Notes: a model not told the origin generated them from the letters alone. A stretch of DNA of 64,000 nt from Candidatus Aenigmatarchaeota archaeon (GCA_041489155.1 JBGPQP010000004.1:13592-77591), one strand, 5' to 3'; shown: positions 41,749-59,238, counted from the stretch's first letter. Made by a program: numbers and translations.

Positions 41749-41792
41749 CTATTCGCGGTTGGTTTTTAAAATATGACTACAAAAATAAAGCG

Positions 41793-42722
41793 ATGTCCAG
41801 AGAAAAGGAACTGAAGGAAGAGGTCGAAGCCGCGAGGAAAAAACTCCGCGAGGAAATAAAAGCGAAGGAAAGGGAGGCGGACGAGAGGCTCGACGCGCTG
41901 CTTTCGCCAAAGAAAATGGAATTCTGCCCGCGCTGCGGCAGGAAGATAAATTCACGTTCTGAATGGGGAGGCCGCTGTCTCCACGACGGCTGCGAGGCAA
42001 TGGTTTGCATCGAATGCTGGGCATCCGAGGAAAAGCGCTTCTGCGGCAAACACTCTGGCGATTTCGTCAGAAAGGAAGAGCCCACCGAAGATGAGGTGAA
42101 AAGCCTCACGCTGAATTACATGGAATTCATAGAGCAGCGCATGAAAAAACACGGCCTCGACTGGACGCCGGAAGGCTTCATCAGAAAAAGCAAAACCGGA
42201 ACCAGGAAGAAAAAATACAGGGATTTCGAGATGATGGTTTATGAAAAGCATCTTTTCTCGAAAAGGCCGAGACTCGGCATCATAGTCAAGCCTGTTTCCC
42301 CTTCGGCGGAAGCGGATGCGAATGACATCATAGAAAGCACGGGGGAAGGGATGCATGCAGTTATAGTTTTCGTTGGCAGCGCCAGTTCCGTGACAACCAA
42401 GCTGAGAAAATTCGCCGAGGAATTTTCCAACAAAAAGGTTTCGCTTTTCATGGCTGACATGGAAAACGGGGATGTGCATTTCAACCGGAAGGAAAAAATA
42501 ACAGAGAAATATTCTTACTGGTTCGACCCGACAAAAACGCCGCTGAAATTCGCTGACATCCTGAAAGCCTTTTCCGAAAGCGTTGCCGGCAGGAGAATAG
42601 TTTCCGTGAAGGACTTCGCCGGCGGCATGGGTCTCGGAAAAGACGAGGCTGCAAGCATTCTCAGGAAGAGCGGCCTGCTGGAAGAGGTGAAGGGCGCTGA
42701 TTCTTACATATTGAAGGAATGA
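41793..42722 (+). CDS. Zinc-ribbon protein with C-terminal winged-helix-like region, hypothetical
   Basis: N-terminal coiled coil, 'CPRCGRKI...CLHDGCEAMVCIECW...FCGKH', then ~200 aa of unknown fold. Confidence 0.55.
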   Translation: MSREKELKEEVEAARKKLREEIKAKEREADERLDALLSPKKMEFCPRCGRKINSRSEWGGRCLHDGCEAMVCIECWASEEKRFCGKHSGDFVRKEEPTEDEVKSLTLNYMEFIEQRMKKHGLDWTPEGFIRKSKTGTRKKKYRDFEMMVYEKHLFSKRPRLGIIVKPVSPSAEADANDIIESTGEGMHAVIVFVGSASSVTTKLRKFAEEFSNKKVSLFMADMENGDVHFNRKEKITEKYSYWFDPTKTPLKFADILKAFSESVAGRRIVSVKDFAGGMGLGKDEAASILRKSGLLEEVKGADSYILKE

Positions 42723-42781
42723 GGCCGGCGGAAGAAACTTATAAATTAGGAATTGCTCTAATATGGATATAACCCGGGTCA

Positions 42782-42901
<120 letters not shown>

Positions 42902-42923
42902 TTCATGCTCAGGAGGTCTTTAC

Positions 42924-43622
42924 ATGCAGCAGGGAGATTTCGTTGAAATCGAGTATGTAGGGAAGGTAAAGCTTACAGGGGAAATATTCGACCTCACTTC
43001 GGAGGATACCGCAAAAAAGGAGAAGATATACAATCCGAACGCCCCATACGGGCCTGCGCTTGTGGTGATGGGCTCGAACATGGTGATAAACGGCGTGATG
43101 CGCGAGCTGGAGAAAATGGAGGTCGGCGAAGAAAGGCAGTTCGAGGTTTCGCCGCAGGACGGCTTCGGAACGCGCGATCCTCGGTTGATAAAAATTATCC
43201 CCATGTCAAAATTCATAGAGAACAAAATCAACCCAGTCCCTGGCACTTATTTTGACATCGACGGCATCCAGGCAAAGGTGCAGAGCATCTCAGGCGGCAG
43301 GGTGCGCGTGGATTTCAACAACCCGCTCGCCGGCAAGGCCCTGAATTACAGCGTTAAAATAACAAGAAAAATCGACGGCGCCAAGGAAAGGATAGAAGCC
43401 CTTCTGAAATATTATAGGGTGGATTTCTCTCACGTAGTGGTCGGCGAAAGGGAAGTTGATATCAAGGCGAAGAACGCCATCAACCCTCTTGCAAAAAAAA
43501 TCGTCAGCGACATGGTCACGAAGTGGGTAAAGGGTATGGAGAAGGTCGAATTCAAAGAGGAAATTGGAAATAAAAAAGCAGACAGCGACGAAGCGGAAAA
43601 TTCTGGAAATAAAAAAGTTTAA
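42924..43622 (+). CDS. FKBP-type peptidyl-prolyl cis-trans isomerase (archaeal long form with IF/chaperone insert)
   Basis: 'GDFVEIEYVGKV..GEIFD', 'GFGTRDP' and 'HPLAGK-like NPLAGKALNYSVKI' follow the SlyD/FKBP pattern. Confidence 0.85.
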   Translation: MQQGDFVEIEYVGKVKLTGEIFDLTSEDTAKKEKIYNPNAPYGPALVVMGSNMVINGVMRELEKMEVGEERQFEVSPQDGFGTRDPRLIKIIPMSKFIENKINPVPGTYFDIDGIQAKVQSISGGRVRVDFNNPLAGKALNYSVKITRKIDGAKERIEALLKYYRVDFSHVVVGEREVDIKAKNAINPLAKKIVSDMVTKWVKGMEKVEFKEEIGNKKADSDEAENSGNKKV

Positions 43623-43692
43623 ATAACTTATATACATAACTTCTTTATAATTGCAGCAAGTTATGTTTCGCAATTTGTAAAGGAGGGATATT

Positions 43693-44802
43693 ATGGGCGT
43701 CAGAAGCGTTGATATTAAGGATGAAATAAAAGAGGTCGTGAAGAGGAAACAGCACCCTGAGGTCGACGAGGAACTCAGGAAGATTCTTGAGTCCAAGAAG
43801 GCCGAGATCAAGGTCATAGGAGTCGGAGGCGCAGGAGGCAACACCATCTCGCGCATGACGCAGGTGGGCATAATCGGCGCCGAGACTATCGCGATGAACA
43901 CCGACGCCCAGGACCTGCTTTATACTGATGCTGACACCAAGGTCCTCATAGGCAGGGAACTTACCGGAGGCCTTGGAGCAGGCGCCGACCCGAAGGTCGG
44001 GACGGAAGCCGCGAAAGAGTCGAAAGAAGACATCAAGAAAGCGCTGGAAGGCGCCGACATGGTGTTCGTGACCTGCGGCCTTGGCGGCGGAACCGGGACC
44101 GGCGCAGCGCCGATAATCGCGGACATCGCGAAGAAAACCGGCGCGCTAACCGTGGGCGTTGTCACGCTTCCGTTCGGGATGGAAGGCAAGCAGAGGATGA
44201 GGAACGCGCAGGACGGCCTTGAAAATCTGCAGTCCATTGCCGACACCCTCATAATCATACCCAACGACAAGCTGCTTGAAATCGTCCCTGACGTATCGAT
44301 AACCACGGCGTTCAAAGTCGCTGATGAGATACTTGTAAACTCGGTCAAGGGCATAACGGAACTCGTCACCAAGCCCGGCCTTGTTAACCTCGACTTCGCG
44401 GACGTCCGCGCGGTGATGGGTGCAGGCGGCCTTGCCATGATAGGCATGGGCGAGAGCGACACGGAGAACCGCGCGCTTGAATCCGTCGAGAAGTCGCTGA
44501 ACAATCCGCTGCTTGACGTGAGCATAGAAGGCGCTTCTGGCGCCCTGATAAACGTCGCCGGCGGCGAGGACATAACCATAAAGGAATGCCAAGAAATCGT
44601 GGAGGCCGTCACGACCAAGCTCAACCCGGACGCGAAGATAATCTGGGGAGCGCAGATCGTTAAGGAGCTCGGCGACACCATAAGGGCGATGCTGATAGTG
44701 ACCGGAGTGAAATCCTCGCAGGTTTTCATGACCGAGAAGAAATTCACTTCAGCGAAGCAGAAAGAGATAGAAAGGGTTCTCGGGATAGACTTCGTGGAAT
44801 AA
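43693..44802 (+). CDS. ftsZ: Cell division protein FtsZ (second paralog)
   Basis: 'VIGVGGAGGNTISRM', 'NTDAQDL', 'GLGGGTGTGAAPIIA' and 'NLDFADVRAVM'. It lies upstream of secE-spt5, as in many archaea. Confidence 0.92.
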   Translation: MGVRSVDIKDEIKEVVKRKQHPEVDEELRKILESKKAEIKVIGVGGAGGNTISRMTQVGIIGAETIAMNTDAQDLLYTDADTKVLIGRELTGGLGAGADPKVGTEAAKESKEDIKKALEGADMVFVTCGLGGGTGTGAAPIIADIAKKTGALTVGVVTLPFGMEGKQRMRNAQDGLENLQSIADTLIIIPNDKLLEIVPDVSITTAFKVADEILVNSVKGITELVTKPGLVNLDFADVRAVMGAGGLAMIGMGESDTENRALESVEKSLNNPLLDVSIEGASGALINVAGGEDITIKECQEIVEAVTTKLNPDAKIIWGAQIVKELGDTIRAMLIVTGVKSSQVFMTEKKFTSAKQKEIERVLGIDFVE

Positions 44803-44899
44803 GACCGCGAGACGAGACCCTTGCCTTACCTTTTTAAGGTAATTTATTTAAACAACGTATATTATACAGATTATAATACAGGCAGGTCAAGGTCCAAGC

Positions 44900-45082
44900 A
44901 TGGGATTAAAAGAAGCGGTAGGGAACTGGAAGAGGGTGATTCAGGTAGCCAGGAAACCGAACAGGTTTGAGTTCACCTCCACGAGCAAGATATGCGCAGT
45001 GGGCCTGGTCCTGATAGGCTTTATCGGCTTCGTTATTTTCATGGCCGCGATTGTAATGTGCTGGGGAGGCTTCTGCTTATGA
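44900..45082 (+). CDS. secE: Preprotein translocase SecE / Sec61-gamma
   Basis: 60 aa. An amphipathic basic N-terminus plus a single TM (ICAVGLVLIGFIGFVIFMAAIV). It sits immediately 5' of spt5 with an ATGA overlap. Confidence 0.7.
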   Translation: MGLKEAVGNWKRVIQVARKPNRFEFTSTSKICAVGLVLIGFIGFVIFMAAIVMCWGGFCL

Positions 45083-45540
45083 CCATATACACCATCCGCA
45101 CGACTTCGGGAAGGGAGCAGATAGTAATAGACATGATAACCAACAAGATAAGGGCCGACAACATCCGCATAAAGAGCATCGCCCATCCCGGCGAGCTGAA
45201 AGGTTACATCTTCATCGAGGGCCCTGAAGGCGAGGTCAGGAAGGCGACGCAGGGCATAATGCACATAAAGGGCATAATAGAAAAGCCTGTCATGCTTTCT
45301 GAAATACAGCAGTTCTTCGAGACCAAGAAAACGAAGATCGTCGTCAGCGAGGGCGATATCGTCGAAATAGTGGGCGGGCCCTTCAAGGGCGAGAAAGGCA
45401 GAGTGCAGAGAATCGACAAAGTCAAGGACGAGATAACCGTCGAGCTGCTCGAGGCGAGCATCCCGATTCCCGTAACCATTTCGGTCGAGCTTCTGAAGCT
45501 GGTGAAAAGGGAGAAACCGGAAACTCAAAGCACGCTTTAA
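45079..45540 (+). CDS. spt5: Transcription elongation factor Spt5 (NusG)
   Basis: NGN domain 'IYTIRTTSGREQIV...GYIFIEG' and KOW 'GDIVEIVGGPFKGEKGRVQRID'. The start is at ATG 45079. Confidence 0.88.
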   Translation: MTIYTIRTTSGREQIVIDMITNKIRADNIRIKSIAHPGELKGYIFIEGPEGEVRKATQGIMHIKGIIEKPVMLSEIQQFFETKKTKIVVSEGDIVEIVGGPFKGEKGRVQRIDKVKDEITVELLEASIPIPVTISVELLKLVKREKPETQSTL

Positions 45541-45574
45541 AATCAATGTTTTTAATGATTTGAGTGAGTTTGCC

Positions 45575-47641
45575 TCAGCGTAATTTTCTTATCATGATTT
45601 TATTGTACAGCCTTTTCAGCCTTATGTATTCTTCGCCGGCCAGTTTCCTTTCCTCGTAAGAAAGCGAATTGTAAATATGATTGGCCTTTTCATACGCATC
45701 CTTAGCGCCGTCCATATCGGTTTCAACCAATGACTCTCCTATTCTCAAAAAGCCGCGCATATTATCAATCTTATCTTTGGCATCTGCGGTTCTGTCCCTC
45801 CGTTGCGGCGGACCTTCTTCATTGTAGTCAGCGTATCCAATCTCTTTCCTGAAAATAGCTTTTAGGTTGTTTTTCTGCTCCTCCAGATGGGCAGCCCTCA
45901 GCAATTTCGATATCTTTTTATTGTAAAATGCAATCATAGATAAGGCAATCAGCACGACGATGATTATTGAAACTATTACTGTGCTCCGGCTCAGTTCCTT
46001 GAAATATATTTTTTCCATCAGCTGTTCGAGCAGCTTTTTTGCTTCCAGGAGAGAGACATACGCATCGATGAATCTGTTCTCCTTTTTTAGCGTAATGCTT
46101 CTGAAAACCATCTCGTTCACAGTTTTAAGCACATCTTTTTCTTCCGAATATGCTTCTGCCTTAATCATGTCAGAACTCATGTCTTGCATGATTCTGAAAT
46201 ATTCAGCATTCAGAACTAATTCGATGGTCTCGGTCACGTAGTCGTATCCGTTCATTGCCTGTTTTGATTTTTCCATGGTTCCGTTGTAATCACCGGAGGC
46301 AAACATTTTCATTGCGGCATCGAGAGCAGAATCAAAGTCGGACATGTTTTTTTCAGAGCCTGGCACTTCCAATCCGAAGTTATTTGTCCAATTCAACATC
46401 GCATGCGTCTCTGATTTTCTTCTGACAGCCTCTTCGAGCATGAATTTCGCGCGGTTTTTTGTGCTCCTTGAAACCCCTAGCGCAACCACTTTCGGCACTT
46501 CTGATGTGCCGGACTTGGCAACAAGCGAAAGGCTGTATAACTGCTCGATTGCGCTGTCCGGAAGCTTGATCGCAACAAAAAAATTCTTTGATTCACCAGT
46601 TTTGATGTCCTGCTGTGTGGGGGCTACAAGTACCCAGTTGGAGGTAATACCATACACCTGAAGGGAGGTGTTATATGCCGTGGAATTGCCCGTGTTTTTG
46701 ACCTCAACGCTGAATTTCAATTCCTCTCCTGGGAACGCTTCGAGATAGTTCGGCGATATTATTGCAAAATCGGGCCTGGGCAGTTCCTGCGGGATAATTG
46801 CGCCCGAAGTGCCTCCGCCGCCATTTCTTGGCGGCGGCGAAGAAAGAACATAAAATAGCGGGCTGACGGCTCGTTTTATGTTTTCGTCGTTGGGATACTT
46901 TAGGGCAGCGATGAAATAGTATGAACCCGTATTCTCATTTACCGCAACGCTCTTGGTGTAATTCAGCCATTCTGCTATTGCTTTCCACGCGCATCCGTAG
47001 TTGTTGTAAGAAGGACCGCAAAGATATGCAGGATCACTGTTTATGCAGTAACAAATCTGGACATCGGTTGTTTCAAGGGGGGTAATCTTGTGTACCGAAA
47101 TGTCCGCTTCGATGACCTGTCCTTGGTAAAGTGCTGAGGGCCTTATGCCCGTGATCTCTATATCATCGATTGGATTTGTTGTGTTGACGTGGATCTGCAA
47201 GCTGGTGCTGTTCAAGCGATTGTCGTCAAGCGAGTATGAATAGAAAGTAATGTCATAAGTCCCTCCGTCATATCCGCTGCTTGGAGGAACATAGATGCGC
47301 AAGGTGACATTGCGGTCGCCGAAACCGGGCAGCAGGAATGCATAGTTGTCCTGGTAATAACTCATGCCTCCGCTCTGGTTCTGGAATTTAACGAAGCCGT
47401 TGGTATCGCTCTTGTTCAGGTATACGAGGACGTCAAGCGGATGGTTCTGGTAAACGGTCAGGTTCAGATAAAAGTAGTAGTCTTCAGGCACAAGTACGTT
47501 GCCATACTGCGGGAAAACGCCAAGCATACCCTTGACAGTGGCGTTCATATTGGTACTGCCGCCGGCGTACTGGGCCGATGCATTTGATGCCAGCAGCAAA
47601 TAGAAAACTGTGAAGCAAAGAATACTAAGGGAACTCCTCAT
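45575..47641 (-). CDS. Secreted surface protein with CARDB-like domain, helical stalk, TM anchor and cytoplasmic helical tail
   Basis: Signal peptide MRSSLSILCFTVFYLLLASNASA|Q. 'FPGEELKFSVEVKNTGNSTAYNTSLQVYG' is CARDB-like. TM 'VIVSIIIVVLIALSMIAFY'. Its architecture resembles the C-terminal half of the 13931 protein. Confidence 0.7.
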   Translation of the reverse strand: MRSSLSILCFTVFYLLLASNASAQYAGGSTNMNATVKGMLGVFPQYGNVLVPEDYYFYLNLTVYQNHPLDVLVYLNKSDTNGFVKFQNQSGGMSYYQDNYAFLLPGFGDRNVTLRIYVPPSSGYDGGTYDITFYSYSLDDNRLNSTSLQIHVNTTNPIDDIEITGIRPSALYQGQVIEADISVHKITPLETTDVQICYCINSDPAYLCGPSYNNYGCAWKAIAEWLNYTKSVAVNENTGSYYFIAALKYPNDENIKRAVSPLFYVLSSPPPRNGGGGTSGAIIPQELPRPDFAIISPNYLEAFPGEELKFSVEVKNTGNSTAYNTSLQVYGITSNWVLVAPTQQDIKTGESKNFFVAIKLPDSAIEQLYSLSLVAKSGTSEVPKVVALGVSRSTKNRAKFMLEEAVRRKSETHAMLNWTNNFGLEVPGSEKNMSDFDSALDAAMKMFASGDYNGTMEKSKQAMNGYDYVTETIELVLNAEYFRIMQDMSSDMIKAEAYSEEKDVLKTVNEMVFRSITLKKENRFIDAYVSLLEAKKLLEQLMEKIYFKELSRSTVIVSIIIVVLIALSMIAFYNKKISKLLRAAHLEEQKNNLKAIFRKEIGYADYNEEGPPQRRDRTADAKDKIDNMRGFLRIGESLVETDMDGAKDAYEKANHIYNSLSYEERKLAGEEYIRLKRLYNKIMIRKLR

Positions 47642-47672
47642 GTACAAATGATTGAATCGTTTCCATATAAAA

Positions 47673-48245
47673 CTACTTTCCGGATTTCTTTTTATTGCGC
47701 TTTTTCAAAACGAAGATTGCAACCGCCAGCGCCACGATTATCAATACGGCTGCCGAAAAAATAACGGGCAATATGCCAATGGGCTCCACTTGCACAGAAA
47801 ATTCATATGGCTCCTTTATCGTGGCTACCCCTATTTTTATGCTGTTAAGGATTGCACCATTGTAGACGACCTTTTCGGGGTTAATCTGGTAAATGATGGG
47901 CGCAGAAATTTCAAGGCACACCACCTTGCAAGATGGGTTGTCTGGGGACATGCACTTCTCGGAAATGCAAGATCGCCTCAAGTTCGTTTCCTGCGGGCAG
48001 TCAATCGGCGTTAGAGTAAAATCGTTAGGCGATATCTTTGTAGTGAGGGTGCTTACATCACCCGTGGTTCCTATATGATACGTCCCGCCTTCCTGGGTGG
48101 CGTAAATCCAGACGTCGCAGAAGTTGGTTTTGCTTCCGGATGGAAGTGTAATGCCGCCCTGTCCAAGAGAAATGCCTGCCTCAGCATTTGGCAAAAGCGA
48201 TATTAAAAACAAAACGGCCACGAGTGTCGCTAAATAAAGTCTCAT
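47673..48245 (-). CDS. Secreted protein with C-terminal TM anchor, hypothetical
   Basis: Signal MRLYLATLVAVLFLISLLPNAEA|G and C-terminal 'VIFSAAVLIIVALAVAIFVLKKRNKKK'. Confidence 0.6.
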   Translation of the reverse strand: MRLYLATLVAVLFLISLLPNAEAGISLGQGGITLPSGSKTNFCDVWIYATQEGGTYHIGTTGDVSTLTTKISPNDFTLTPIDCPQETNLRRSCISEKCMSPDNPSCKVVCLEISAPIIYQINPEKVVYNGAILNSIKIGVATIKEPYEFSVQVEPIGILPVIFSAAVLIIVALAVAIFVLKKRNKKKSGK

Positions 48246-48364
48246 GTGATTTAATTGTGTTATTGTTTAAAAAACTTATCACTTGAAAGGACCTGCTGGA
48301 AATCCTCGTGATAGCGAGAATACCTGATCACAAAAAGCTGTAAGTTGTGTGCTGCGTGAGAGAC

Positions 48365-48976
48365 TTAAGCGCACGTTCCGCAGTTGCTCTCAGAGGTTCC
48401 TTCTTGTCTTCCGCACCAACAGTATCCGGTTACATATACGCCTGGCTGCTGGCCGGCCGGTACACTAAGGAAGTATGTTGCCCAGCAGTTCGAATTAATC
48501 GAGCTGCTTTCGCACGTTTCCATTCCAGACCACCCGTTGGTCAGCGATATCGCAGTGCCGTTGCTGAAAATGTTGGTGCCGTTGTTCGCGGTGCTGTTTG
48601 CATGATAAGTGACGTTGCCTATGCCGATGTAATAACTTTCGGTCGTGAGGTTGGTCCTGTTGCTCGCATGTGAGAAATTGATGCTCACCGTAGATGAAGC
48701 GTCGACCGTGAGGTTAAAGGTCGAGCCTCCGTTGGCGGCGTTGTTGTTGCAACTCGCGTTGTTGCCGTTGCTGCTCTGATCCTGGGTGGCGAATGTAATG
48801 CCGTTCGTGAGGCAATTTGAGATTAAAATCGACACCCATCCGCGAACCGTCACGTTCATCGTTGTGCTGCCGGTCGCGTAGTCAGCCGAGTCTCCCAAAG
48901 GAGTGAAAACGCTTAACGTAAGCGCAAATAAGCCGAATACTATGAATATTCCCAACGCCCCAATTCCAACTCTCAT
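48365..48976 (-). CDS. Secreted/anchored protein homologous to the C-terminal domain of the 1,724-aa protein
   Basis: N-terminal hydrophobic helix. 'GITFATQDQ', 'IGIGNVTY' and 'YFLSVPAGQQPGVY' align with 'GIRFAEQDP', 'IGIGNVTV' and 'YFWLSVPQGQDPNSY' at the giant protein's C-terminus. Confidence 0.6.
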   Translation of the reverse strand: MRVGIGALGIFIVFGLFALTLSVFTPLGDSADYATGSTTMNVTVRGWVSILISNCLTNGITFATQDQSSNGNNASCNNNAANGGSTFNLTVDASSTVSINFSHASNRTNLTTESYYIGIGNVTYHANSTANNGTNIFSNGTAISLTNGWSGMETCESSSINSNCWATYFLSVPAGQQPGVYVTGYCWCGRQEGTSESNCGTCA

Positions 48977-49035
48977 AAATATTTATTAAGGCACTAGAAT
49001 ATAAATGTTTAAACATTTTTATTTTAAACTTCTTC

Positions 49036-52000
49036 CTACCCCCTTTCTTCTTTTATGTAAATCGTTGTGTTGTACGAGTTCGGGTCCTGTCCCTGCGGAA
49101 CCGACAGCCAGAAATACAGAGTAGTTATGTTGCTCTGGCCCGCGGGAACGTTCGACCTTATCAACTGATAGCCAGTTGAAAGCTGTATGACCTGGGAATC
49201 TGGCGACGTAGAATTGACAGTTACGTTACCTATGCCTATGACCGAACTCCCGTTTACCAGGTCACCTGTCGCCATTATCGAAACGTTGACTGTCCCGCAG
49301 CCAGCGGTGGACAAATCGGTTATGTTGTAGTTCCCGTTGTCCACCGCGGAAACGTTAACCTGATCCGGGTCCTGCTCAGCGAAGCGAATGCCTGCCTCAA
49401 GCTGCGAAGTCATTGCGAAATCAACGTTGCAGGCGCTCACGCTCAAATTCAGAACAGTCGTGTTCGAATTAATCCTTCCGGAAGAATCGTTCACGTACGT
49501 GGTGTTGTAAAAGAACGTCCCGGCCGAATCGCCCACGTTAACATTCACCGAATACCAGCCGTCGCCAGCCGAACCTGCGCAGCTGCCTGTGTCGGACATC
49601 GTTATATTGAATATGCTCCCGTTGGATTGCGTTACCGTAGTCCAGACAGCATTTACCCCAAAATTATCAGAAACTCCTGAAACGTTCAGGCATACAATTG
49701 TATTCATGCCCACAGAGCCTGAGTTGTTGATATGTTTGCTTCCTATTTGTGGGTTTGTTAAATCTACCGTGAACGTCCTGTTCACGTTGGACCAGTCTGC
49801 CTGATTAATTGTATCATTACACCACGCATCCCACTTCCATGTCCCTTCTGGTATGCCGGAGACGGTCACATTCCACCAACCGTTGTTCGTGGGGCTTGAA
49901 TTGGTCTGGTTCGCGTGCCAGCCTGACCAGTTGCCGTAGAGCTTGAGCGTACTCACGCCTATATTATCAGAACACTTCAAATCGAAAACTATTGAGCCGT
50001 CGGAGTCGTTATAATAGGTGACAGGATTCGTTCCCAGGGAGGCGGTTGGGTCGGCATCACTTTCTTCTTCTATCGTTATGTTGTGTTCCGAACCCAGCGT
50101 CAGGGTGAAGTTCAACTCTCCGTTAGCCTGCGATGTGAGATTGCAGTTCGCATCATTACAATCATTTCCGTCCATCTTTGCGGAATAGTTAATTGTCGTG
50201 TTTGGCATCTGCACTGTCAGATTTGTTGAGCCTGTCCCGTCCAAATAAATAGTTGCGTTATTTGTATCAGATGCAGGCGAGGTTGCTGATAAAATAAGGA
50301 CATCGGTGTTTGTGTTGTTCTTTATTTGAGGGGTTGTTGTGTACAAGTAAGATATGTTTACATAAGAAGGATTTGTTTGATTAGTATACCATGTTGGATG
50401 CGTTCTCAATTTAACAGCCAGCCGGTACCATGATTTTACATAATCCATTGACCAGTTCACAGTAAAGTTTCTGTTAATCCATGTATAGACAGTTACAATG
50501 GGGACACTTTGATTATAATCGCTGTTACTATCATAAGTAGTATATCTTTCAACACCTGTATAACTATCTGATTCAGCTTTATACCAAAAAGACATGTTCA
50601 TATCTTTAATAAAACTGGGGACAGTTACCGTTAAATCATCAGGAGATGCTTGAACCCAACCACTGCAGCTCCAATATTCTTCTGTTGTTGGGGGCGTTAA
50701 AAGCAAAGATTTTGCATCGGTGCCAATACCTGTTGGCTGACCGTGCGTTGGGTTAACATCCCTGAAATAGTAATCCACTTTTGCTTCTGTTGTATTAACA
50801 AGAAACGCATAGTTTCTTATTACATTATTGTTGTTGGTGGGTTCTGTTACATTTATTAGCAAAGAATATAACCCAAGCCTTGTTGCCGTAAAATTCCCTG
50901 TAATGCTATTCCCGCTTTTTGACATACTAACTGTTTCATAAGGCCTTGTTGTTATGTTGTATGCGCAATTATCGCAGGCTCCTCCACCTAGATAATACAG
51001 AGATATATTAAATCCAACCAAGTCATTAACATTAGGCGTTTGATTAGTTGTTGAAACCGTAATCATGGTGTTATTAATATTATGTATAAATTTATTATTG
51101 GAATAGATATTGTTTGAACTACTCATATCATATACATTATTTGATATAGTATTCCCAGTTAGATGGGTATTAGACGAAGACTGAAGATAAATACCATACC
51201 GAATGTTTGAATCGGCAGTGTTATTCGTAAGGTTGTTATCATAAGACGAAGAATCAATATAAATCCCGGCATAATAATTCGAATTAGCAGTGTTATTCGT
51301 AAGGGTGTTATTAGATGAACCCTGAAGATAAATACCAGAGCCCATGGACCAAGTGTTCGAATTGGCAGTGTTATTCGTAAGGGTGTTATTAGATGAAGAA
51401 GAAAGATAAATACCATGAGAGTTCATGCTCAAATTGACAGTGTTATTCGCAAGGGTATTAGATGAAGAATAAAGAAAAATACCCGCGTGGACACTCGAAC
51501 TAATAATATTATTGGCTATAATGTTATTATCAGAATAAGAATAAAATGTAAGTCCACGATAATTATTTGTTATAGTATTTCCTCTAATTTCTGTTCCTGT
51601 TGCATTAATCTCCAAACCATACTTACCGTCTGTGTTAGACCATCCAGCCTCGCTCAGCAAGGAATTCTTCATCGCAAATGTTGAGCCAGAATCAACTTTA
51701 AAGAAGAATTCACGTGTTGTATTGACTGCTGTGATATTGCTTGCATCACTTGTTGTTGATGCGTCATCATCATTGTCATAGATGTAGAAAGCCCCTCCTG
51801 ACTGTACTTTGATTCCGTACTGGCCATCACTAGAAGAATTCATTTTAGGGGTGACGTTCCTGAATGTGAGATTGCCGCCGTTCTGTATTGTAAGATTGCC
51901 AGTCATTGTCATTATTCTATTGCTGCACATCTGTGTATTGCTAATAATCCAATCATCACCACTGCCAGGATATGCACAGGTTGTATTAATACTGAATGAA

Positions 52001-54210
52001 ACATTTGTTATGCTATTAAGATTTCCCAATGTGTCATTTGCAAACAAGTATAATGTGTGCGTTCCTTCTGATGTGTCGAATGTTGTGTTTGCGCAGTTTG
52101 CCAATGTCGTGTTGGCGCCTTTGTCAAGGTTGTACCAGCACTTATCAACGCCTGTGTAATCCGTGACAGTGTAATTCAAGTTTATTGACAGATTTCCGTA
52201 TGTTCTGTTTTTTGGAGCAACTATTGTGATGCTTGGCGGTATGTTATCCGCTTGCACTTGCAGAGAGCCAGTATTATCTAGGTTTGCTGAACCTGCCTCT
52301 ATGTAGGTTGATGTTCCTACTGCACATCCTTCAACTGTCCAGTTAATAGTGCCAGCAGGATTGCTTGCGGGAAGGATAGAGCAAGAAACGTTGCTGGCGT
52401 AAATAGCGCAATAGGAAGCCATGGTGCCAGTCGTTTGTATCGCTATAATTCGTATCTGGTTTGAACCGCATGCATTAGTTATTGTCGCGCCACCTGAAAC
52501 TGTTAAGGTGATTGTTCCGCTCCATGGGTCGCCAGTTTCATAGTGCACAACCGAGAAGGTTGTGTTCTGGCCTAAGCTTATTGGTGAAGTGACAACAGTA
52601 AATGATGAATCATAAAGCCTTGCTGGCGCGTCGCTTGCAATCATCCATTGTCTCGACTCTTTCCAATTGCCGATTTCAAGCGGCCCGAGGATGAAGAGAG
52701 AGGGGGAGATGTCGGGCGCATCGAATTCGTAACCGATTTCATAGGTTTCGCCCGGGGTCAGCTTCTTGTCCCATGACAGAATCTTGGCATCCCCCGCGTC
52801 TGTGACCGTCATACCTTCATTAGGCGTTATTTCAAAGCCTGAAGGCACGTATTCGTTTATCAGGCCTTCGTAATCCTTGTTAGCCTTTATGACGAAAATC
52901 ATACTGTATTTCGCCGGCGGATATATTCTTGTCGGACCATTTCTTGCGACGTCGAAATCCGTTCGCTTTTTCACCTCGAATGCGTCTGTCATGCTCCTTA
53001 CGCCGTTCATTGTAATAGCTGTCAGATTCATGGTATATGTACCTTCCTTGTTCACGATGTAAGAGGCATAGTAATCGGGAAGGTTGGTCACTCCGTAGAG
53101 TTCGCATTCAGGCGAAACGCTTATAGTGCCATCGGACGTTCCCAAGGTTGTTGTTACGCCTTGCGAATCTGTTATTTGAAGCGTTACGTCGGCGTTGCAG
53201 ACCATGTGACCTTGGTCGTCCAGAACGGCCATTCCGATGAAGGCCTGCTCGTTTTCGAGATAAATCGATTTGTGGGTGTTTATGGCGAGCACGCCCCAGA
53301 GGAATTCCCCTTCTTTTTCGTATGTTTCATTCCCCTCCTTTACCTCCATCCTTATCTTGTACAAACCCGCCCTGAACGCCCTTCCTTTCGAAAGCTCTAT
53401 TTCATACTCCCCACTGCCAACCTTCAAAACATCCGCTTTTACCTCAAGCAATTTCCGGTCAGGGCCGTAAACAAAAACATTCAAAACCTCCGGCCATGTT
53501 CCCTCCTCGATTATCTTTCCCTGCTCGGAAAATACATTTTTCGAGATCAGCCTGAATCTCGGTTTTTCGTTCATCCCGAATCTCTCCTTTACTGGCGAGA
53601 ATCCCACAACTTTTTCCAAGAATAACCTTGGGAATGTTTCGTTGGTTTCCGTTACGTTCAGGTCGTGTTCAAGGAATGACCTGTTCTCGCTTGTTTTGTT
53701 AAACTCCTCTTCAAGAACAGTCCTATTCATAGCGGTTTCATTTTTCAGGAATGTCCTGTTTTCTGCCAACCCAGAAATCAGTTCCTCTCTCGTGACGTTC
53801 GATTCAACGCAGTCCCTGCATGTGCCCCACAAATATTTTCCCGTGGTTTCGTAGCCTTCACTCACATTATCGAAGGTTAAATCAGGAACATATTCAAGAA
53901 TTTGGACGATTGTCACGCTCGCGAAGAGCACTAGCAAGGCAAGAATGATAAAACCGGCGTTGATGCTGCACGAGGATTTGGCCCATGCACCTCTGGGGAA
54001 CCTGTGGCCGTTTTTCGTTTTCGGATAATGCAGCTTCGCCTTGCCTACGTCCCTCACGATAATCTTGCCCGTTGCCTGAAGGACGACGAGATATTTAGAG
54101 GCAGTCATCCTGTTTATGGCTAGCGCGCTGGCTATTTCCTCTATTGTAAGCCCGTAATCGTGTTTTGCGACAAGTTTCAGAATTTTTTCCTCAGTGCCGT
54201 TTCCGCCCAT
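49036..54210 (-). CDS. Giant (1,724 aa) membrane protein: N-terminal winged-helix domain, one TM helix, extracellular Ig-like domains and parallel beta-helix (PbH1/NosD-like) repeats
   Basis: wHTH 'ILKLVAKHDYGLTIEEIASALAINRMTASKYLVVLQATGKIIVRDVGKAKLHY'. TM 'GFIILALLVLFASVTIVQIL'. PbH1 repeats 'NNTLTNNTANSN...GIYLQSSSN'. Dense N-x-S/T sequons. Confidence 0.85.
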   Translation of the reverse strand: MGGNGTEEKILKLVAKHDYGLTIEEIASALAINRMTASKYLVVLQATGKIIVRDVGKAKLHYPKTKNGHRFPRGAWAKSSCSINAGFIILALLVLFASVTIVQILEYVPDLTFDNVSEGYETTGKYLWGTCRDCVESNVTREELISGLAENRTFLKNETAMNRTVLEEEFNKTSENRSFLEHDLNVTETNETFPRLFLEKVVGFSPVKERFGMNEKPRFRLISKNVFSEQGKIIEEGTWPEVLNVFVYGPDRKLLEVKADVLKVGSGEYEIELSKGRAFRAGLYKIRMEVKEGNETYEKEGEFLWGVLAINTHKSIYLENEQAFIGMAVLDDQGHMVCNADVTLQITDSQGVTTTLGTSDGTISVSPECELYGVTNLPDYYASYIVNKEGTYTMNLTAITMNGVRSMTDAFEVKKRTDFDVARNGPTRIYPPAKYSMIFVIKANKDYEGLINEYVPSGFEITPNEGMTVTDAGDAKILSWDKKLTPGETYEIGYEFDAPDISPSLFILGPLEIGNWKESRQWMIASDAPARLYDSSFTVVTSPISLGQNTTFSVVHYETGDPWSGTITLTVSGGATITNACGSNQIRIIAIQTTGTMASYCAIYASNVSCSILPASNPAGTINWTVEGCAVGTSTYIEAGSANLDNTGSLQVQADNIPPSITIVAPKNRTYGNLSINLNYTVTDYTGVDKCWYNLDKGANTTLANCANTTFDTSEGTHTLYLFANDTLGNLNSITNVSFSINTTCAYPGSGDDWIISNTQMCSNRIMTMTGNLTIQNGGNLTFRNVTPKMNSSSDGQYGIKVQSGGAFYIYDNDDDASTTSDASNITAVNTTREFFFKVDSGSTFAMKNSLLSEAGWSNTDGKYGLEINATGTEIRGNTITNNYRGLTFYSYSDNNIIANNIISSSVHAGIFLYSSSNTLANNTVNLSMNSHGIYLSSSSNNTLTNNTANSNTWSMGSGIYLQGSSNNTLTNNTANSNYYAGIYIDSSSYDNNLTNNTADSNIRYGIYLQSSSNTHLTGNTISNNVYDMSSSNNIYSNNKFIHNINNTMITVSTTNQTPNVNDLVGFNISLYYLGGGACDNCAYNITTRPYETVSMSKSGNSITGNFTATRLGLYSLLINVTEPTNNNNVIRNYAFLVNTTEAKVDYYFRDVNPTHGQPTGIGTDAKSLLLTPPTTEEYWSCSGWVQASPDDLTVTVPSFIKDMNMSFWYKAESDSYTGVERYTTYDSNSDYNQSVPIVTVYTWINRNFTVNWSMDYVKSWYRLAVKLRTHPTWYTNQTNPSYVNISYLYTTTPQIKNNTNTDVLILSATSPASDTNNATIYLDGTGSTNLTVQMPNTTINYSAKMDGNDCNDANCNLTSQANGELNFTLTLGSEHNITIEEESDADPTASLGTNPVTYYNDSDGSIVFDLKCSDNIGVSTLKLYGNWSGWHANQTNSSPTNNGWWNVTVSGIPEGTWKWDAWCNDTINQADWSNVNRTFTVDLTNPQIGSKHINNSGSVGMNTIVCLNVSGVSDNFGVNAVWTTVTQSNGSIFNITMSDTGSCAGSAGDGWYSVNVNVGDSAGTFFYNTTYVNDSSGRINSNTTVLNLSVSACNVDFAMTSQLEAGIRFAEQDPDQVNVSAVDNGNYNITDLSTAGCGTVNVSIMATGDLVNGSSVIGIGNVTVNSTSPDSQVIQLSTGYQLIRSNVPAGQSNITTLYFWLSVPQGQDPNSYNTTIYIKEERG

Positions 54211-54271
54211 CAGAAACCTCGCCAGCCAAAAACCATGTTTAATTATTTATACGAGGTCATATAAATTTTTT

Positions 54272-54298
54272 AATCATTGATGATTATCATTGATGATT
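54272..54298. promoter_or_regulatory. Tandem imperfect palindromes (2 x ATCATTGATGATT) in the divergent promoter region
   Basis: AATCAT-TG-ATGATT (54272-54285) is followed directly by ATCATTGATGATT (54286-54298). The site lies 62-88 nt upstream of the giant gene's ATG (54210, minus strand) and ~105 nt upstream of rpl11. Confidence 0.35.
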
Positions 54299-54401
54299 AT
54301 TTATTTCATCACCAAGTGCAAGATATCAAAAAAAATCCCCTAGCAAGCGACATGGTATAATGGCAACATTTAAATAGCCGACATATAATAATGTGATTAT
54401 T

Positions 54402-55004
54402 ATGCCAAAAGAGAAAGTGCAAGTAATGGTTGAAGGCGGCAAGGCAACAGCCGCTCCTCCGCTGGGACCAGCCCTTGGACCGCTTGGCGTCCCGATAAAG
54501 AAGATAATAGACGAGATAAACACCAAGACCAAGGACCTTGCAGGCACACAGGTTCCGGTGACCGTCATAGTTGATACCTCGACCAAGAACTTCGAGGTAA
54601 AGGTCGGCACGCCGCCGGTCAGCGCGCTCATCAAAAAAGAGCTCGGCATAGAGGCCGGCGCCAGCGAGGCGGGAAAGGTAAGGGCGGGCGACCTCACCGA
54701 AGAACAGGTTGTCAGGATTGCTTCTGCAAAATTCGGCTCAACCGATCCCCGCTACGTGAACCAGATAAAGGGCTCGGCGAGGAGCATGGGGATAACGATA
54801 GGCAAAGGCCCGCTGAGCGAAGATGAAATAAAGGCCTACGAAGACGCCAGGAAGAGGGCGACTGAAGCCAAGATGGCAGCCGCCGCCCCTGCAGCAGCGC
54901 CGGTGGAAGGAGAAGCACCGGCCGCAGCGCCCGTCGCAGCCGCGCCCAAGAAGGAAGAGAAACCCAAGGAAGAAAAGAAGAGAAAGATCAGAAGGGGCAA
55001 GTAA
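54402..55004 (+). CDS. rpl11: 50S ribosomal protein L11 (uL11) with a C-terminal Ala/Pro-Lys/Glu extension
   Basis: 'VEGGKATAAPPLGPALGPLGV' is the L11 signature. The ATG at 54402 (MPKEK...) is preferred over the GTG at 54393. See the findings for the extra ~60-aa tail. Confidence 0.9.
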   Translation: MPKEKVQVMVEGGKATAAPPLGPALGPLGVPIKKIIDEINTKTKDLAGTQVPVTVIVDTSTKNFEVKVGTPPVSALIKKELGIEAGASEAGKVRAGDLTEEQVVRIASAKFGSTDPRYVNQIKGSARSMGITIGKGPLSEDEIKAYEDARKRATEAKMAAAAPAAAPVEGEAPAAAPVAAAPKKEEKPKEEKKRKIRRGK

Positions 55005-55031
55005 GGCTTGAAATTTTAAATTGAAAATTAT

Positions 55032-55550
55032 TCAGTAGTCAGTCGTCTCTATCTTTTCCGCCAGGCTTTTCTTTATCAGGAGGTCTGCGTTGGGCTCGGG
55101 CAGGGTCGTGATGTCGCCTTTCTTGAAAGGCCCGTAGTTTTTCATGTTTATGCCGACGAACTTCGCGACGTCGTCGAGCAGCGTGACCATGACCAGCTTT
55201 TCGGCCTGCCTTTCCAGCTTCTCCTCCCTGCCCTTCTGGAAGCCGTTTATGCATTCGACTATCTTTTCGAAAAAGCTTCGCTCCTCGGCTGCCATGTTTT
55301 CGGGCACCACGCCGGAGTCTATGAAGCCGTGCGCGGCATTGAGAATCTTGCGCTCGCGCCGCTCGAATATCGTCTTAAGGCGGCGTTTCACCGCTTCCAT
55401 GGCCCACTGGTCCGTCTCGTCGCGGGACATTTTCCCTTTCTTTTCCAAGTATTCCCTGACCTGCTCGAAGAATTCCTCTGGCAGCTTGGTCAGACCAGCG
55501 GAGTTCCTCTCGTCCTCGAATATGCGCCTTATCGTCTCGTCGGTGAGCAT
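55032..55550 (-). CDS. GINS complex subunit (Gins51/Gins15-like)
   Basis: 'LTKLPEEFFEQVREYL' and 'ERRERKILNAA' are helical A-domain features. The C-terminal 'YGPFKKGDITTLPEPNADLLIKKSLAE' is a B-domain pattern common to archaeal GINS. Confidence 0.6.
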   Translation of the reverse strand: MLTDETIRRIFEDERNSAGLTKLPEEFFEQVREYLEKKGKMSRDETDQWAMEAVKRRLKTIFERRERKILNAAHGFIDSGVVPENMAAEERSFFEKIVECINGFQKGREEKLERQAEKLVMVTLLDDVAKFVGINMKNYGPFKKGDITTLPEPNADLLIKKSLAEKIETTDY

Positions 55551-55659
55551 GATTATTGGTTGGCGGGTGGGAATATAAAATTAAAAGCCCGGGCACGAGT
55601 GAAATCTCTTATAAAGCCGCGCAGGAAATAAATCATCAACATGATTGAGAGGGATAGCC

Positions 55660-57381
55660 ATGGCAGTGCGACAGCCTATAATCTCGGTGCTGGGTCACGT
55701 GGACTCGGGGAAGACGACTTTGCTCGACCGCATCAGGGGAAGCGCTGTCGCGCCTGGCGAGGCCGGCGGCATAACCCAGCACATCGGCGCTTCTGAGGTG
55801 CCGATAGAGAACATAAAGACATCCTGCGGCCCGCTTCTCAGCAGGATGAAAGTCGACGTTAAAATTCCCGGCCTGCTTTTCATAGACACGCCCGGCCACG
55901 AGGCGTTCACCACGCTGCGGAAGCGCGGCGGGTCGATCGCTGACATCGCGATTCTTATAATCGACATTAACGAGGGCATCCAGAAGCAGACCGAAGAAAG
56001 CATCATGTTTTTGAAAGAATTCAAAACTCCGTTCGTCGTCGCGGCGACGAAGATCGACAGGATTCTCGGCTGGCATTCTGAGGCGAATGCGTGCTTCCTG
56101 ACGAGCTTCGCTGCGCAGGATGCGAGGGCGCAGGACGAGCTTGAAGAGAAACTCTACAGGATAGTCGGCCAGCTCGGGGAGAAGGGCTTCCGGTCCGAGC
56201 GCTACGACCGCGTCGAGGACTTCGCGAAGGCGATATGCATCGTCCCCGTTTCCTCCGTGACTGGCGAGGGCATCCCTGACCTGCTCGTGCTCCTCACCGG
56301 CCTGGCGCAGAAATATCTTGAAAAGCGCCTCGAGGTCACGGGAGGCATGGGGAAGGGGACGATACTCGAGGTCAGGGAATACCGCGGGCTCGGGTCGACG
56401 ATAGATGTAATACTTTATGACGGCGTCGTCAGCCGCGGGGACACCATGATAATCGGCGGCGCGGGCCTGCTTGTGACGAAGGTCAAGGCCCTGCTCAAAC
56501 CCGAGCCGCTGAAGGAGATGCGCGTCGAGCGAGTCTTCCAGCCCATTGAAAGCGCCTCGGCTGCGTCCGGCGTGAAAATTTCCGCACCTGACCTCACCGG
56601 CGTGGTCGCCGGCTCGCCCGTGAGATTCGTAAGGAACGAGAAGGACGGGAAGGCCGCTATAAAGGACATAGAGAAGGAAATCGAGGAAGTCGAAATCGAG
56701 ACCGAGAACCAGGGCGTGATAATAAAGGCTGACACGCTCGGAAGCCTTGAAGGCCTGCTGAAGACGCTGAGGGGCATGAACATCCCGATAAGGAAGGCGA
56801 AGGTCGGTAATGTCGTGAGGAACGAAGTGATGGAAGCCTCCAACATGAAAAAGCCCGTCATATTCGTGTTCAACGTCGAAGTCCTTCCGGACGCCGACGA
56901 GCTGGCGAAAAAGCTCGGCGTGAACGTTTTCAAATCGAACATAATTTACAGGCTCATCGAGGATTACCAGAAATGGGAGGACGAAACCAAAAGGAACTCG
57001 GAATCAAAGCTTATCGACAGCGTTACCCATCCCGCAAGGATGACGATACTCCGCGGTTACGTGTTCCGCCAGTCCAAGCCTGCGATATTCGGCGTGGAAG
57101 TTCTCGGAGGAACGATAAGGCCCGGCTACAAGCTGAAAAAAGGCGAGCATACCATAGGGGAAATCAAGGAACTGCAGGCCGAGGGCGAGAAGGTGGAAAA
57201 GGCGAAGATAGGCGACAAAGTCGCTGTCTCTGTCGACGGCGTCACGATCGGCAGGCAGATAGACGAGGGCGACACGCTGGAAACAGTTCTCAGCGGCAGG
57301 GATTTCGAGATACTCGAGCGCTTGAAAAGCAAGCTCCCGGAAGATGAGAAGCGCCTGCTCGAGGAGTTCCAGGCCGGCTAG
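55660..57381 (+). CDS. infB: Translation initiation factor aIF5B (IF-2)
   Basis: 'ISVLGHVDSGKTTLLD', 'GITQHIGA', 'IDTPGHEAF' and 'ATKID' GTPase boxes. The ATG at 55660 is preferred over the TTG at 55645. Confidence 0.92.
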   Translation: MAVRQPIISVLGHVDSGKTTLLDRIRGSAVAPGEAGGITQHIGASEVPIENIKTSCGPLLSRMKVDVKIPGLLFIDTPGHEAFTTLRKRGGSIADIAILIIDINEGIQKQTEESIMFLKEFKTPFVVAATKIDRILGWHSEANACFLTSFAAQDARAQDELEEKLYRIVGQLGEKGFRSERYDRVEDFAKAICIVPVSSVTGEGIPDLLVLLTGLAQKYLEKRLEVTGGMGKGTILEVREYRGLGSTIDVILYDGVVSRGDTMIIGGAGLLVTKVKALLKPEPLKEMRVERVFQPIESASAASGVKISAPDLTGVVAGSPVRFVRNEKDGKAAIKDIEKEIEEVEIETENQGVIIKADTLGSLEGLLKTLRGMNIPIRKAKVGNVVRNEVMEASNMKKPVIFVFNVEVLPDADELAKKLGVNVFKSNIIYRLIEDYQKWEDETKRNSESKLIDSVTHPARMTILRGYVFRQSKPAIFGVEVLGGTIRPGYKLKKGEHTIGEIKELQAEGEKVEKAKIGDKVAVSVDGVTIGRQIDEGDTLETVLSGRDFEILERLKSKLPEDEKRLLEEFQAG

Positions 57382-57390
57382 GCTGAACCA

Positions 57391-57400
57391 ATTTAAATAC
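57391..57400 (+). promoter_or_regulatory. TATA-box candidate for aIF2-beta
   Basis: 'atttaaatac' lies ~25 nt upstream of ATG 57421, a spacing consistent with a short-leader or leaderless archaeal transcript. Confidence 0.35.
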
Positions 57401-57420
57401 GGCGCTTCTAATTGATTGTT

Positions 57421-57828: not shown

Positions 57829-57849
57829 TTTTACTTTTGCCTTAAGTCT

Positions 57850-58953: not shown

Positions 58954-58997
58954 GAATAATATTTGGCAGAATTCGTATAAAAGAACCGTAAGGTTTC

Positions 58998-59237: not shown

Positions 59238-59238
59238 G

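Follow-up and report, generated by a model that had tools for sequence, protein, structure and literature searches.

A dispensable surface-gene cassette that separates Spt5 from L11 in one archaeal clade and may encode an attachment complex joined by strand exchange

We analyzed a stretch of 64,000 nucleotides (nt) from a Candidatus Aenigmatarchaeota archaeon (GCA_041489155.1, JBGPQP010000004.1:13592-77591), here called the window, in which four minus-strand open reading frames (ORFs) separate the Spt5 gene (end, 45540) from the L11 gene (start, 54402). The ORF map and family scans gave the same coordinates and gene calls as the original prediction for secE-spt5, for the four inserted genes, and for L11; we refer to the inserted genes by the lengths of their products (p688, p190, and p203, of 688, 190, and 203 amino acids [aa]) and to the fourth, of 1,724 aa, as the giant. 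Our preferred reading, to which we assign a probability of about 0.6, is that these genes form a clade-restricted, dispensable surface cassette that was gained once on the stem of its clade, descended vertically, and was lost again in some members, and that the cassette encodes an attachment complex held together by strand exchange. Comparison of gene orders and sequences indicates that the block is ancestral to the clade and dispensable, whereas assembly of the complex through a shared module by strand exchange is what we infer from a structure model. Neither this cassette nor DUF4402 was described in the literature that we searched, and we would class the cassette with the known surface adhesin or pilus-like gene clusters of archaea and bacteria, as a variant whose module family lacks a curated description.

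We evaluated how often Spt5 and L11 are neighbors in archaea by two scans. The first was anchored on L11 in one genome per species (at least 80 loci; none closer than 60% identity among the matches listed), and the second was anchored on Spt5 in metagenome contigs and yielded 80 further loci, 70 of them with an Spt5 at most 68% identical to that of the window. Spt5 lay directly upstream of L11 in at least about 50 of the genome loci, usually at a spacing of 10 to 60 nt, and the two genes were adjacent in nearly all of the approximately 55 more distant metagenome loci (Spt5 identity of ≤68%) that held both. With an adjacency this widespread, the interruption seen in the window is not a chance pattern; there the gap spans 8,861 nt with four opposite-strand genes and does not count as a same-strand adjacency. 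The order FKBP-FtsZ-SecE-Spt5-L11 recurred among DPANN loci. The loci most like the window carried Aenigmatarchaeota titles (among the matches listed, identity reached 77% for FtsZ and 60% for Spt5), and in them, as in most distant metagenome loci that extended far enough downstream, L1-L10-L12 came after L11.

The relatives of the window were taken from the contigs of p203 homologues found by protein look-up and, for L102, L104, and L108, from the metagenome scan. Site and orientation of the block are shared by the window, L081, L093/L101, L098/L102, L104, L091/L092, L099/L106, and L108, and it is thus carried by 8 of the 10 sampled lineages of one clade, probably the Aenigmatarchaeota; L100 and L179 are without it. 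In a neighbor-joining tree of FtsZ, Spt5, and FKBP (200 bootstraps), the ten lineages formed a clade with 100% support, with L100 as the sister of the window (100%) and L179 nested inside. A block-free sister clade was also recovered with 100% support, and in it L11 is followed by L1-L10-L12. Since 8 of the 10 lineages, in a fully supported clade, share the site, one insertion on the stem followed by two losses is the simplest account. One of the most conserved gene adjacencies of prokaryotes can thus stay interrupted across a whole clade.

The two lineages without the block bear on how it was lost. In L179, Spt5 and FtsZ are 79% and 89% identical to those of the window, and the Spt5-L11 gap is 82 nt. 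L100 is far closer: FtsZ (98%), Spt5 (97%), L11 (97%), GINS (98%), and aIF5B (99%) are nearly identical to those of the window, and the gap is 133 nt. Positions 1 to 6545 of L100 aligned with 39017 to 45560 of the window at 94.9% identity, and positions 6540 to 12100 aligned with 54286 to 59872 at 95.0% (BLASTN), so that 8,725 bp of the window are missing at the L100 junction. The block is flanked by a direct repeat, TTTTTAATGATT at 45549 to 45560 and TTTTTAATCATT at 54267 to 54278, with matches at 11 of 12 positions, and the L100 crossover falls inside this repeat (TTTTTAAT[G/C]ATT). L100 also keeps a single copy of a 13-nt element of the giant's promoter, described below, and we therefore interpret it as a deletion and not as an empty target site. 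L100 is in effect a natural knockout, a genotype 95% identical to the window and without the cassette, which can be used for metagenome comparison; one source metagenome (JGI 3300032069) contains both L100 and L094, which has the block.

The absence of L1, L10, and L12 after L11 has a different history. Family scans found none of these genes in the whole 64 kb or in the clade relatives, and they confirmed that a convergent GINS gene follows L11, both as predicted. The block is not the cause of their absence: the order L11-GINS-aIF5B is present in block-free L100 and L179 too, so the break between L11 and L1 is a separate, clade-wide rearrangement that is independent of the block.

Next to the conserved site stands a conserved gene content. 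At least nine related lineages, and distant versions elsewhere, have the four block genes together and in one order, in agreement with the proposal that they form a joint cell-surface apparatus; the core order is giant, p203, MinD, p190, p688, and in several relatives the cassette is convergent with Spt5. Relative to the window, the proteins are 83 to 89% (FtsZ), 71 to 87% (Spt5), 53 to 64% (p190), 51 to 63% (p203), and 45 to 50% (p688) identical, and for the giant the values are 64% over the N-terminal ∼100 aa and 63 to 81% over the C-terminal ∼150 aa. L084 and L089 carry the same cassette in a different genomic neighborhood. The distant cassettes L095 to L097, whose p203-like proteins are at 28 to 33% identity, keep the gene order as well. 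In them the giant is followed by one or sometimes two p203-like proteins, then by a shorter membrane protein (∼200 aa), which has a signal peptide and a transmembrane (TM) segment, and then by a longer one (340 to 640 aa), which combines a Gly-rich linker and a CARDB-like region with a signal peptide and a TM segment. Individual relatives have additional cargo. The L081 giant (1,892 aa) has PQQ/beta-propeller domains, and its cassette also holds an inserted toxin-antitoxin pair and an AAA ATPase; the giant of L093/L094 (2,013 aa) has MG2/FG-GAP domains and is accompanied by extra WD40, DsbA, MopE, and FG-GAP genes.

The cassette is built around one protein module. In its simplest form this is p203, a secreted protein that consists of the module only, with a signal peptide and no TM segment by hydropathy, a beta-sandwich with 8 invariant cysteines, the C-terminal motif GYCWCGRQ..CGTC, and 10 N-glycosylation sequons. 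Its conserved N-terminal strand, DYATGSTTMNVTVRG, contains the invariant residues T38, M40, V42, R45, G46, and V48 right after the predicted cleavage site. We found 31 close homologues of p203 (51 to 64% identical), all of ∼200 aa and without a Pfam family; neither Pfam nor NCBIfam has a family for the module. A p203-family profile run against 1.84 billion cluster representatives retrieved 300 proteins at E values of ≤1e-3, either stand-alone proteins of 185 to 210 aa or C-terminal domains of proteins of 468 to 2,309 aa. What emerges is a recurrent four- to five-gene cassette defined around a module that is absent from Pfam and NCBIfam and has 300 cluster representatives in public data. The module was also considered as DUF4402 and this was rejected (sub-threshold matches in 6 of 100 members, best E value of 0.003, and no match for the window protein).

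Three proteins carry the module, according to BLASTP, motif, hhalign, and profile comparisons: p203, the C terminus of the giant, and the N-terminal domain of p688. The predicted paralogy of p203 and the C terminus of the giant is borne out by BLASTP (31% identity; E value, 6e-5) and by the family profile (domain E value, 6e-18). p688 is a type I membrane protein that starts with a signal peptide, crosses the membrane at residues 554 to 572 (nt 45926 to 45982), and ends in a basic, helical cytoplasmic tail; between signal peptide and TM segment lie, in order, the p203-like domain, a Gly/Pro linker, a CARDB domain (nt ∼46520 to 46774; Pfam), and a helical stalk. The p203-like domain of p688 (residues ∼22 to 210, nt 47012 to 47578; hhalign probability of 77% and E value of 2e-5 against the p203 family) opens with QYAGGSTNMNATVKG, the same motif as DYATGSTTMNVTVRG of p203.

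We modeled p203 with AlphaFold2. An alignment of 28 close homologues gave a predicted local distance difference test (pLDDT) score of 42, which was unusable, and a 100-sequence alignment of distant relatives gave a confident beta-sandwich (pLDDT, 90.7), in which residues 22 to 49 were unpacked and not modeled as a strand. When this model was compared with the PDB by Foldseek, most of the top 50 matches, all of them weak, were pilins assembled by donor-strand exchange (CsuA/B, with a probability of 0.98, FimA, CfaB, PapA, and Caf1); Pyrodictium cannulae appeared at rank 13, and N-terminal beta-sandwich domains of GH123 proteins were also among the matches. A first alternative is that the cassette encodes co-located envelope proteins without strand exchange and that the module is an ordinary immunoglobulin (Ig)/CARDB-like sandwich with a structural or glycan-binding role. 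The weakness of the structural matches, the GH123 domains among them, the CARDB domain of p688, and the lack of anything chaperone- or usher-like in the cassette would fit this account, but we consider it unlikely: pilin families consistently dominate the Foldseek list; p203 has an invariant N-terminal strand, which recurs where mature p688 begins and which the model leaves unpacked; and the four gene types stay together down to 28 to 33% identity and in different contexts.

The giant combines conserved ends with an exchangeable middle. It had been predicted, like the other three block proteins, to have a signal peptide or a TM segment; all four are exported or membrane proteins, but the giant has no cleavable signal peptide. 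Its single TM segment (hydropathy; residues 87 to 105, nt 53896 to 53952) is preceded by basic residues and by an HTH_11 winged helix (residues 7 to 53, nt 54052 to 54192; 31.3 bits versus a Pfam cutoff of 25), and because the winged helix precedes the sole TM segment, we take the giant to be signal anchored with a cytoplasmic N terminus. HTH_11 scored above the cutoff in three giants, namely, that of the window and those of two relatives (31.2 and 26.6 bits). Beyond the membrane follow an Ig/PKD-like ectodomain (residues 106 to 530), a swapped passenger with a parallel beta-helix (residues ∼531 to 1380, nt 50071 to 52620; Pfam Beta_helix and NosD), an Ig-like region (residues 1381 to 1570), and the C-terminal p203-like module (residues ∼1571 to 1720, nt 49051 to 49500). 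The beta-helix coils at 51137 to 51487 were the only large repeat family found in a repeat search. The giant has 82 N-X-S/T sequons; sequon density is 48 to 49 per 1,000 aa in p203 and the giant versus 0 in four cytosolic proteins.

Residues 1 to 102 of the giant are 64% identical to the L081 giant (1 to 80 in L093), and its last 130 to 340 residues are 75 to 80% identical to the L081 and L093 giants, while the middle is unrelated among lineages. We compared G+C contents at third codon positions (GC3) with those of 48 long ORFs of the window (median, 0.70; interquartile range, 0.61 to 0.73). GC3 was 0.64 in p203, 0.54 in p688, 0.55 in p190, 0.60 in residues 1 to 105 of the giant, and 0.63 in its residues 1571 to 1724, and it fell to 0.34 to 0.41 in residues 531 to 1380. 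This low-GC3 segment coincides exactly with the part that cannot be aligned to other giants, and its best homologues are beta-helix proteins labeled Aenigmarchaeota. One of these, P0182, joins a 61%-identical beta-helix segment and a 78%-identical C-terminal module in one protein. Moreover, a 74-aa ORF in L081 (9740 to 9964) is a relic of the 3′ end of a second giant (75% identical to residues 1649 to 1723); it adjoins the inserted AAA_14/DUF4143 ATPase gene and is evidence for a past cassette replacement. Given the conserved ends, the unrelated low-GC3 middle, the combination of segments in P0182, and the L081 relic, the giant gene is a mosaic, and these alignments indicate that its passenger is replaced by recombination while the ends stay fixed.

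This composition bears on a further alternative, that the block is a recently acquired mobile genomic island carrying strain-specific cargo by horizontal transfer. The block is absent from a genotype at 95% nucleotide identity (L100), its 11/12-nt flanking repeat could be att-like, the GC3 of the block genes (0.47 to 0.64) is below the window median and drops to 0.34 to 0.40 in the giant's middle, and the cassette occurs in another context in L084 and L089. Yet the same site and orientation recur across the clade, divergence of the block proteins roughly tracks that of the flanking genes, the piece of the giant's promoter retained in L100 points to deletion, and the giant's conserved ends and p203 are near native in GC3 (0.60 to 0.64). 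Pfam and NCBIfam detected no integrase or recombinase domain in the four block proteins; no integrase, transposase, or tRNA gene lies in or beside the block (the nearest tRNA genes are at 11253 and 42782); no long flanking repeat surrounds it, the 11/12-nt direct repeat being the only one; and a phage or defense origin was rejected, as the four proteins match no PHROG or PADLOC family. Recent mobile gain is accordingly a rather improbable explanation. The original prediction had called the block an accessory island. Accessory in the sense of dispensable was upheld by L100 (95% nucleotide identity and 97 to 99% identity of flanking proteins) and L179; the sense of a recent mobile acquisition was not. 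The block is hypervariable as well as dispensable, and it forms a genuine functional unit. The insertion is not phylum-wide, and Spt5 and L11 are generally linked in the lineage, and the suggested compositional analysis found only the middle of the giant to be foreign.

Two further components accompany the module carriers. p190 is a small type I membrane protein. Behind its signal peptide, a Cys-rich domain of ∼130 aa opens with AGISLGxGGITL, and a TM segment and a Lys-rich tail make up the C-terminal part; it has no family in Pfam, NCBIfam, or the PDB, and distant counterparts share its layout. By hhalign it showed no relation to the p203 family. The other component is an archaeal MinD. In all related cassettes examined, an intact MinD of 250 aa is encoded on the opposite strand between p203 and p190 (TIGR01969 minD_arch, 211 bits versus a cutoff of 201.75). 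In the window it is reduced to a remnant of 18 codons in the corresponding place and strand, which was hit by the MinD queries of all five relatives (TBLASTN; 55% identity over 18 aa; E values down to 0.001). Archaeal MinD proteins position surface machinery (10.1101/2020.04.03.021790; PMC11588486).

The upstream region of the giant gene is also conserved. A TATA-like box, TCATATAAA (plus strand, 54257 to 54265), is accompanied by two tandem copies of a 13-nt palindromic element, ATCATTGATGATT, at 54273 to 54285 and 54286 to 54298, the right flanking repeat (54267 to 54278) overlapping the first. The element is an inverted repeat, ATCAT-NN-ATGAT. The pair lies just upstream of the giant gene's TATA-like box in all four lineages for which the region is available, namely, the window, L081 (about 2355 to 2385), L093 (about 3780 to 3806), and L098 (about 3595 to 3625), and it is kept despite a differing upstream neighbor gene in each. 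No exact copies were found elsewhere in the 64-kb window. The giant and p203 are predicted to have promoters of their own.

This candidate operator, together with the HTH_11 matches above the Pfam cutoff and the fact that the giant is, in all lineages, the cassette's sole protein with a DNA-binding fold, might suggest that the giant is a contact-sensing receptor, that is, a membrane-tethered transcription factor that binds the palindrome of its own promoter, with the surface partners modulating the signal. The giant does have the architecture of a membrane-tethered winged helix-turn-helix (wHTH) protein of the ToxR-like kind (cytoplasmic wHTH, single TM segment, and extracytoplasmic domain), though the resemblance is one of architecture only. 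However, the distant cassette L095 has a different cytoplasmic N terminus, and the element, for which binding is a prediction, could equally be bound by a factor encoded elsewhere; we give this account little credence. A version that joins both functions seems more doubtful still: an adhesion-and-signaling device in which strand exchange holds the distal end of the giant to p203 and p688 and the winged helix binds the promoter palindrome, perhaps after a contact-triggered release or conformational change. If it were true, contact with a host or surface would be coupled directly to transcription in a DPANN archaeon, in a ToxR- or Notch-like manner, with a passenger swapped by recombination. Finally, a type IV pilus-like system with p203 as a prepilin is very hard to sustain: p203 starts with a short charged segment and a hydrophobic stretch, and a T2SSE-type ATPase is encoded at 270 to 2525, but the hydrophobic segment is poorly conserved and is followed by a signal peptidase I-type site and the invariant mature N terminus, the alignment gives no support to a class III (type IV pilin) signal peptide, the fold matches are beta-sandwich pilins and not the alpha-beta pilins of type IV pili, and no cassette encodes PilB, PilC, or a prepilin peptidase.

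Several observations weigh against the reading that we prefer, that of a vertically inherited attachment complex joined by strand exchange. The module's resemblance to the pilin fold is weak, and a generic Ig-like beta-sandwich is a serious rival: no Foldseek match to the PDB reached an E value of ≤1e-3 (E values of 6e-3 or worse; TM scores of 0.3 to 0.55), and when p203, p688, the giant, and the p203-family profile were searched against PDB sequences, there was no significant match and no link to a solved pilin. p190 was tried as a chaperone and rejected; a six-sequence profile had FimC as its sole PDB match (E value, 0.26), which was gone with an 11-sequence profile, and PapD_N was not detected. 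Since the window has no intact MinD, MinD is not essential to the cassette. The N-terminal anchor of the giant suits a tether or loop and not a classical tip adhesin on a long fiber, unless it is cleaved. Attachment to a host is suggested by the DPANN lifestyle rather than by observations on this organism. As to history, one gain and two losses were read from a neighbor-joining tree of three proteins in which some inner nodes have only 52 to 87% support. The taxonomic label of the clade was taken from the titles of related records, and one close p203 homologue, P0022, is labeled Thermoplasmata archaeon. This label may reflect a binning or classification error or a transfer; the context of the family is otherwise all Aenigmatarchaeota-like DPANN.

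A life attached to other cells is ascribed to DPANN archaea, but few of the molecules that make the contact are known. Under the preferred reading, the cassette would have entered the Spt5-L11 boundary once, in the ancestor of one DPANN clade, and would then have been inherited vertically, diverging faster than its housekeeping neighbors and being lost again in some members; the loss in L100 would be an 8.7-kb deletion between the 12-nt direct repeats. Independently of this, a second rearrangement of that stem would have carried L1-L10-L12 away from L11. The module would be a pilin-like beta-sandwich with a conserved free N-terminal strand, and its three copies may join by donor-strand complementation, a process that would proceed without a chaperone or usher of the bacterial type. 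The distal end of the giant would thereby be tied, via one or more p203 units, to membrane-anchored p688, and the outcome may be a surface tether or short fiber that displays the giant's passenger, in the window a parallel beta-helix, to a host cell or surface. Recombination that uses the conserved 5′ and 3′ ends as homology arms would exchange the passenger between lineages and shift the binding specificity, and the cytoplasmic winged helix, the p688 tail, and MinD might place or regulate the complex. This gives a testable idea of assembly, in which pilin-like strand exchange links a giant exchangeable adhesin to a membrane anchor.

The positions of the features are collected in Table 1, together with those of unrelated insertions of 0.4 to 2.3 kb at the Spt5-L11 junction of other DPANN lineages, two from the metagenome scan (L112 and L134) and two from the genome scan (L014 and L001). 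Given these unrelated insertions, the junction is a recurrent insertion point.

Table 1. Coordinates of features in the window and of junction insertions in other loci
Sequence	Feature	Position (nt)	Strand	Remarks
Window	FKBP	42924-43622	+	Upstream of FtsZ
Window	FtsZ	43693-44802	+	
Window	SecE	44900-45082	+	Pfam match weak, position conserved
Window	Spt5	45079-45540	+	NGN and KOW domains; TIGR00405, 137 bits (NCBIfam)
Window	Left direct repeat TTTTTAATGATT	45549-45560		
Window	Block by comparison with L100	45561-54285		8,725 bp
Window	p688	45575-47641	-	688 aa
Window	p190	47673-48245	-	190 aa
Window	Archaeal MinD remnant	48287-48340	+	KDLLEILVIARIPDHKKL, then stop
Window	p203	48365-48976	-	203 aa
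Window	Giant	49036-54210	-	1,724 aa
Window	Promoter region of giant gene	about 54257-54298		TATA-like box, right repeat, tandem palindromes
Window	L11	54402-55004	+	Pfam, NCBIfam, sequence
Window	GINS51	55032-55550	-	Convergent with L11; Pfam
Window	aIF5B	55645-57381	+	
L134	Junction insertion	1178-3414		665-aa exported protein and small TM protein
L112	Junction insertion	824-2128		Polytopic membrane protein
L014	Junction insertion	8157-9924		Three paralogous small proteins
L001	Junction insertion	9583-9978		Nudix-like ORF

Elsewhere in the window we made several side observations. L11 is a lone gene with its own TATA-like box, TTTAAATA, at 54369 to 54376, and its residues ∼140 to 200 form an Ala/Pro/Lys/Glu-rich C-terminal extension of ∼60 aa that is common to the clade relatives and, as TBLASTN coverage suggests, is perhaps present in some other DPANN lineages too. 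This tail resembles the hinge and tail of ribosomal stalk proteins, and NCBIfam gave a weak match of L11 to an "L11/unknown domain fusion" model. Between a 309-aa ORF and FKBP lies a tRNA of 119 nt (42782 to 42900, plus strand), presumably intron bearing, which an Rfam model detects and ARAGORN misses. An ORF at 18957 to 19820 (minus strand; GC3, 0.535) encodes a GGDEF diguanylate cyclase domain (E value, 5e-27), which is unusual in an archaeon and may be a bacterial acquisition. A LAGLIDADG-type ORF (24569 to 25483, plus strand) has the lowest GC3 of the window (0.27) and lies within a low-GC stretch at 24 to 26 kb. At 270 to 11196 (plus strand), the T2SSE/ArlI-type secretion ATPase gene (270 to 2525) is followed by ORFs of 2,090 and 701 aa without a Pfam match; this may be a second surface or pilus locus, and no p203-like module was found in it.

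Among known systems, the chaperone-usher pili of Gram-negative bacteria (archaic Csu, type 1 Fim, and P pili) supply the best, though weak, structural matches of the p203 model (CsuA/B, FimA, CfaB, PapA, and Caf1). Their layout parallels the one proposed for the cassette: the adhesin is large, in two parts, and ends in a pilin-like module; one or more small subunits consist of that module only and have a free N-terminal strand; and a further subunit terminates or anchors the structure. In contrast, the cassette has no detectable sequence relationship to these pili, there is no outer membrane or usher, and no cassette protein belongs to the PapD_N or usher families; furthermore, the cassette's adhesin is membrane anchored with a cytoplasmic winged helix, and its module has 8 invariant cysteines and is predicted to be heavily glycosylated.

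Archaeal threads and cannulae polymerize by donor-strand complementation with no known chaperone or usher (PMC9715654; 10.1101/2024.12.30.630787). These and related filaments (Sulfolobus threads of Saci_0406 with the putative cap Saci_0405, Pyrodictium CanA, and bundling or Tat-dependent pili) are built from Sec-exported, N-glycosylated beta-sandwich subunits with an N-terminal donor strand, as is predicted for p203, and have paralogous minor subunits encoded next door, as in the cassette (PMC9715654; 10.1101/2024.12.30.630787). They differ in having one major polymerizing subunit and no giant, whereas the cassette has three module carriers, two TM-anchored partners, and MinD; a filament built by the cassette is hypothetical. 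Profile searches of PDB sequences found no homology of the module to Saci_0406, CanA, or AbpA/TasA-like subunits, and CanA was a weak fold match only.

Regulators of the ToxR/CadC type have a winged helix at their cytoplasmic N terminus, which one TM helix connects to a large extracytoplasmic part. The giant shares this layout and has a conserved palindromic element in its own promoter, but its helix is of the HTH_11/HTH_24 type and not of the OmpR type, its ectodomain comprises more than 1,600 aa of adhesin-like repeats, and its DNA binding is putative. In the WxL/Csc operons of Gram-positive bacteria, a small secreted protein is a paralogue of the C-terminal domain of a large surface protein, and a membrane-anchored partner is encoded with them. 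The folds and the domain of life differ, and on the side of the cassette there is no peptidoglycan; nevertheless, there are weak, sub-threshold WxLIP matches in Pfam, and the operon logic is the same as that of the cassette.

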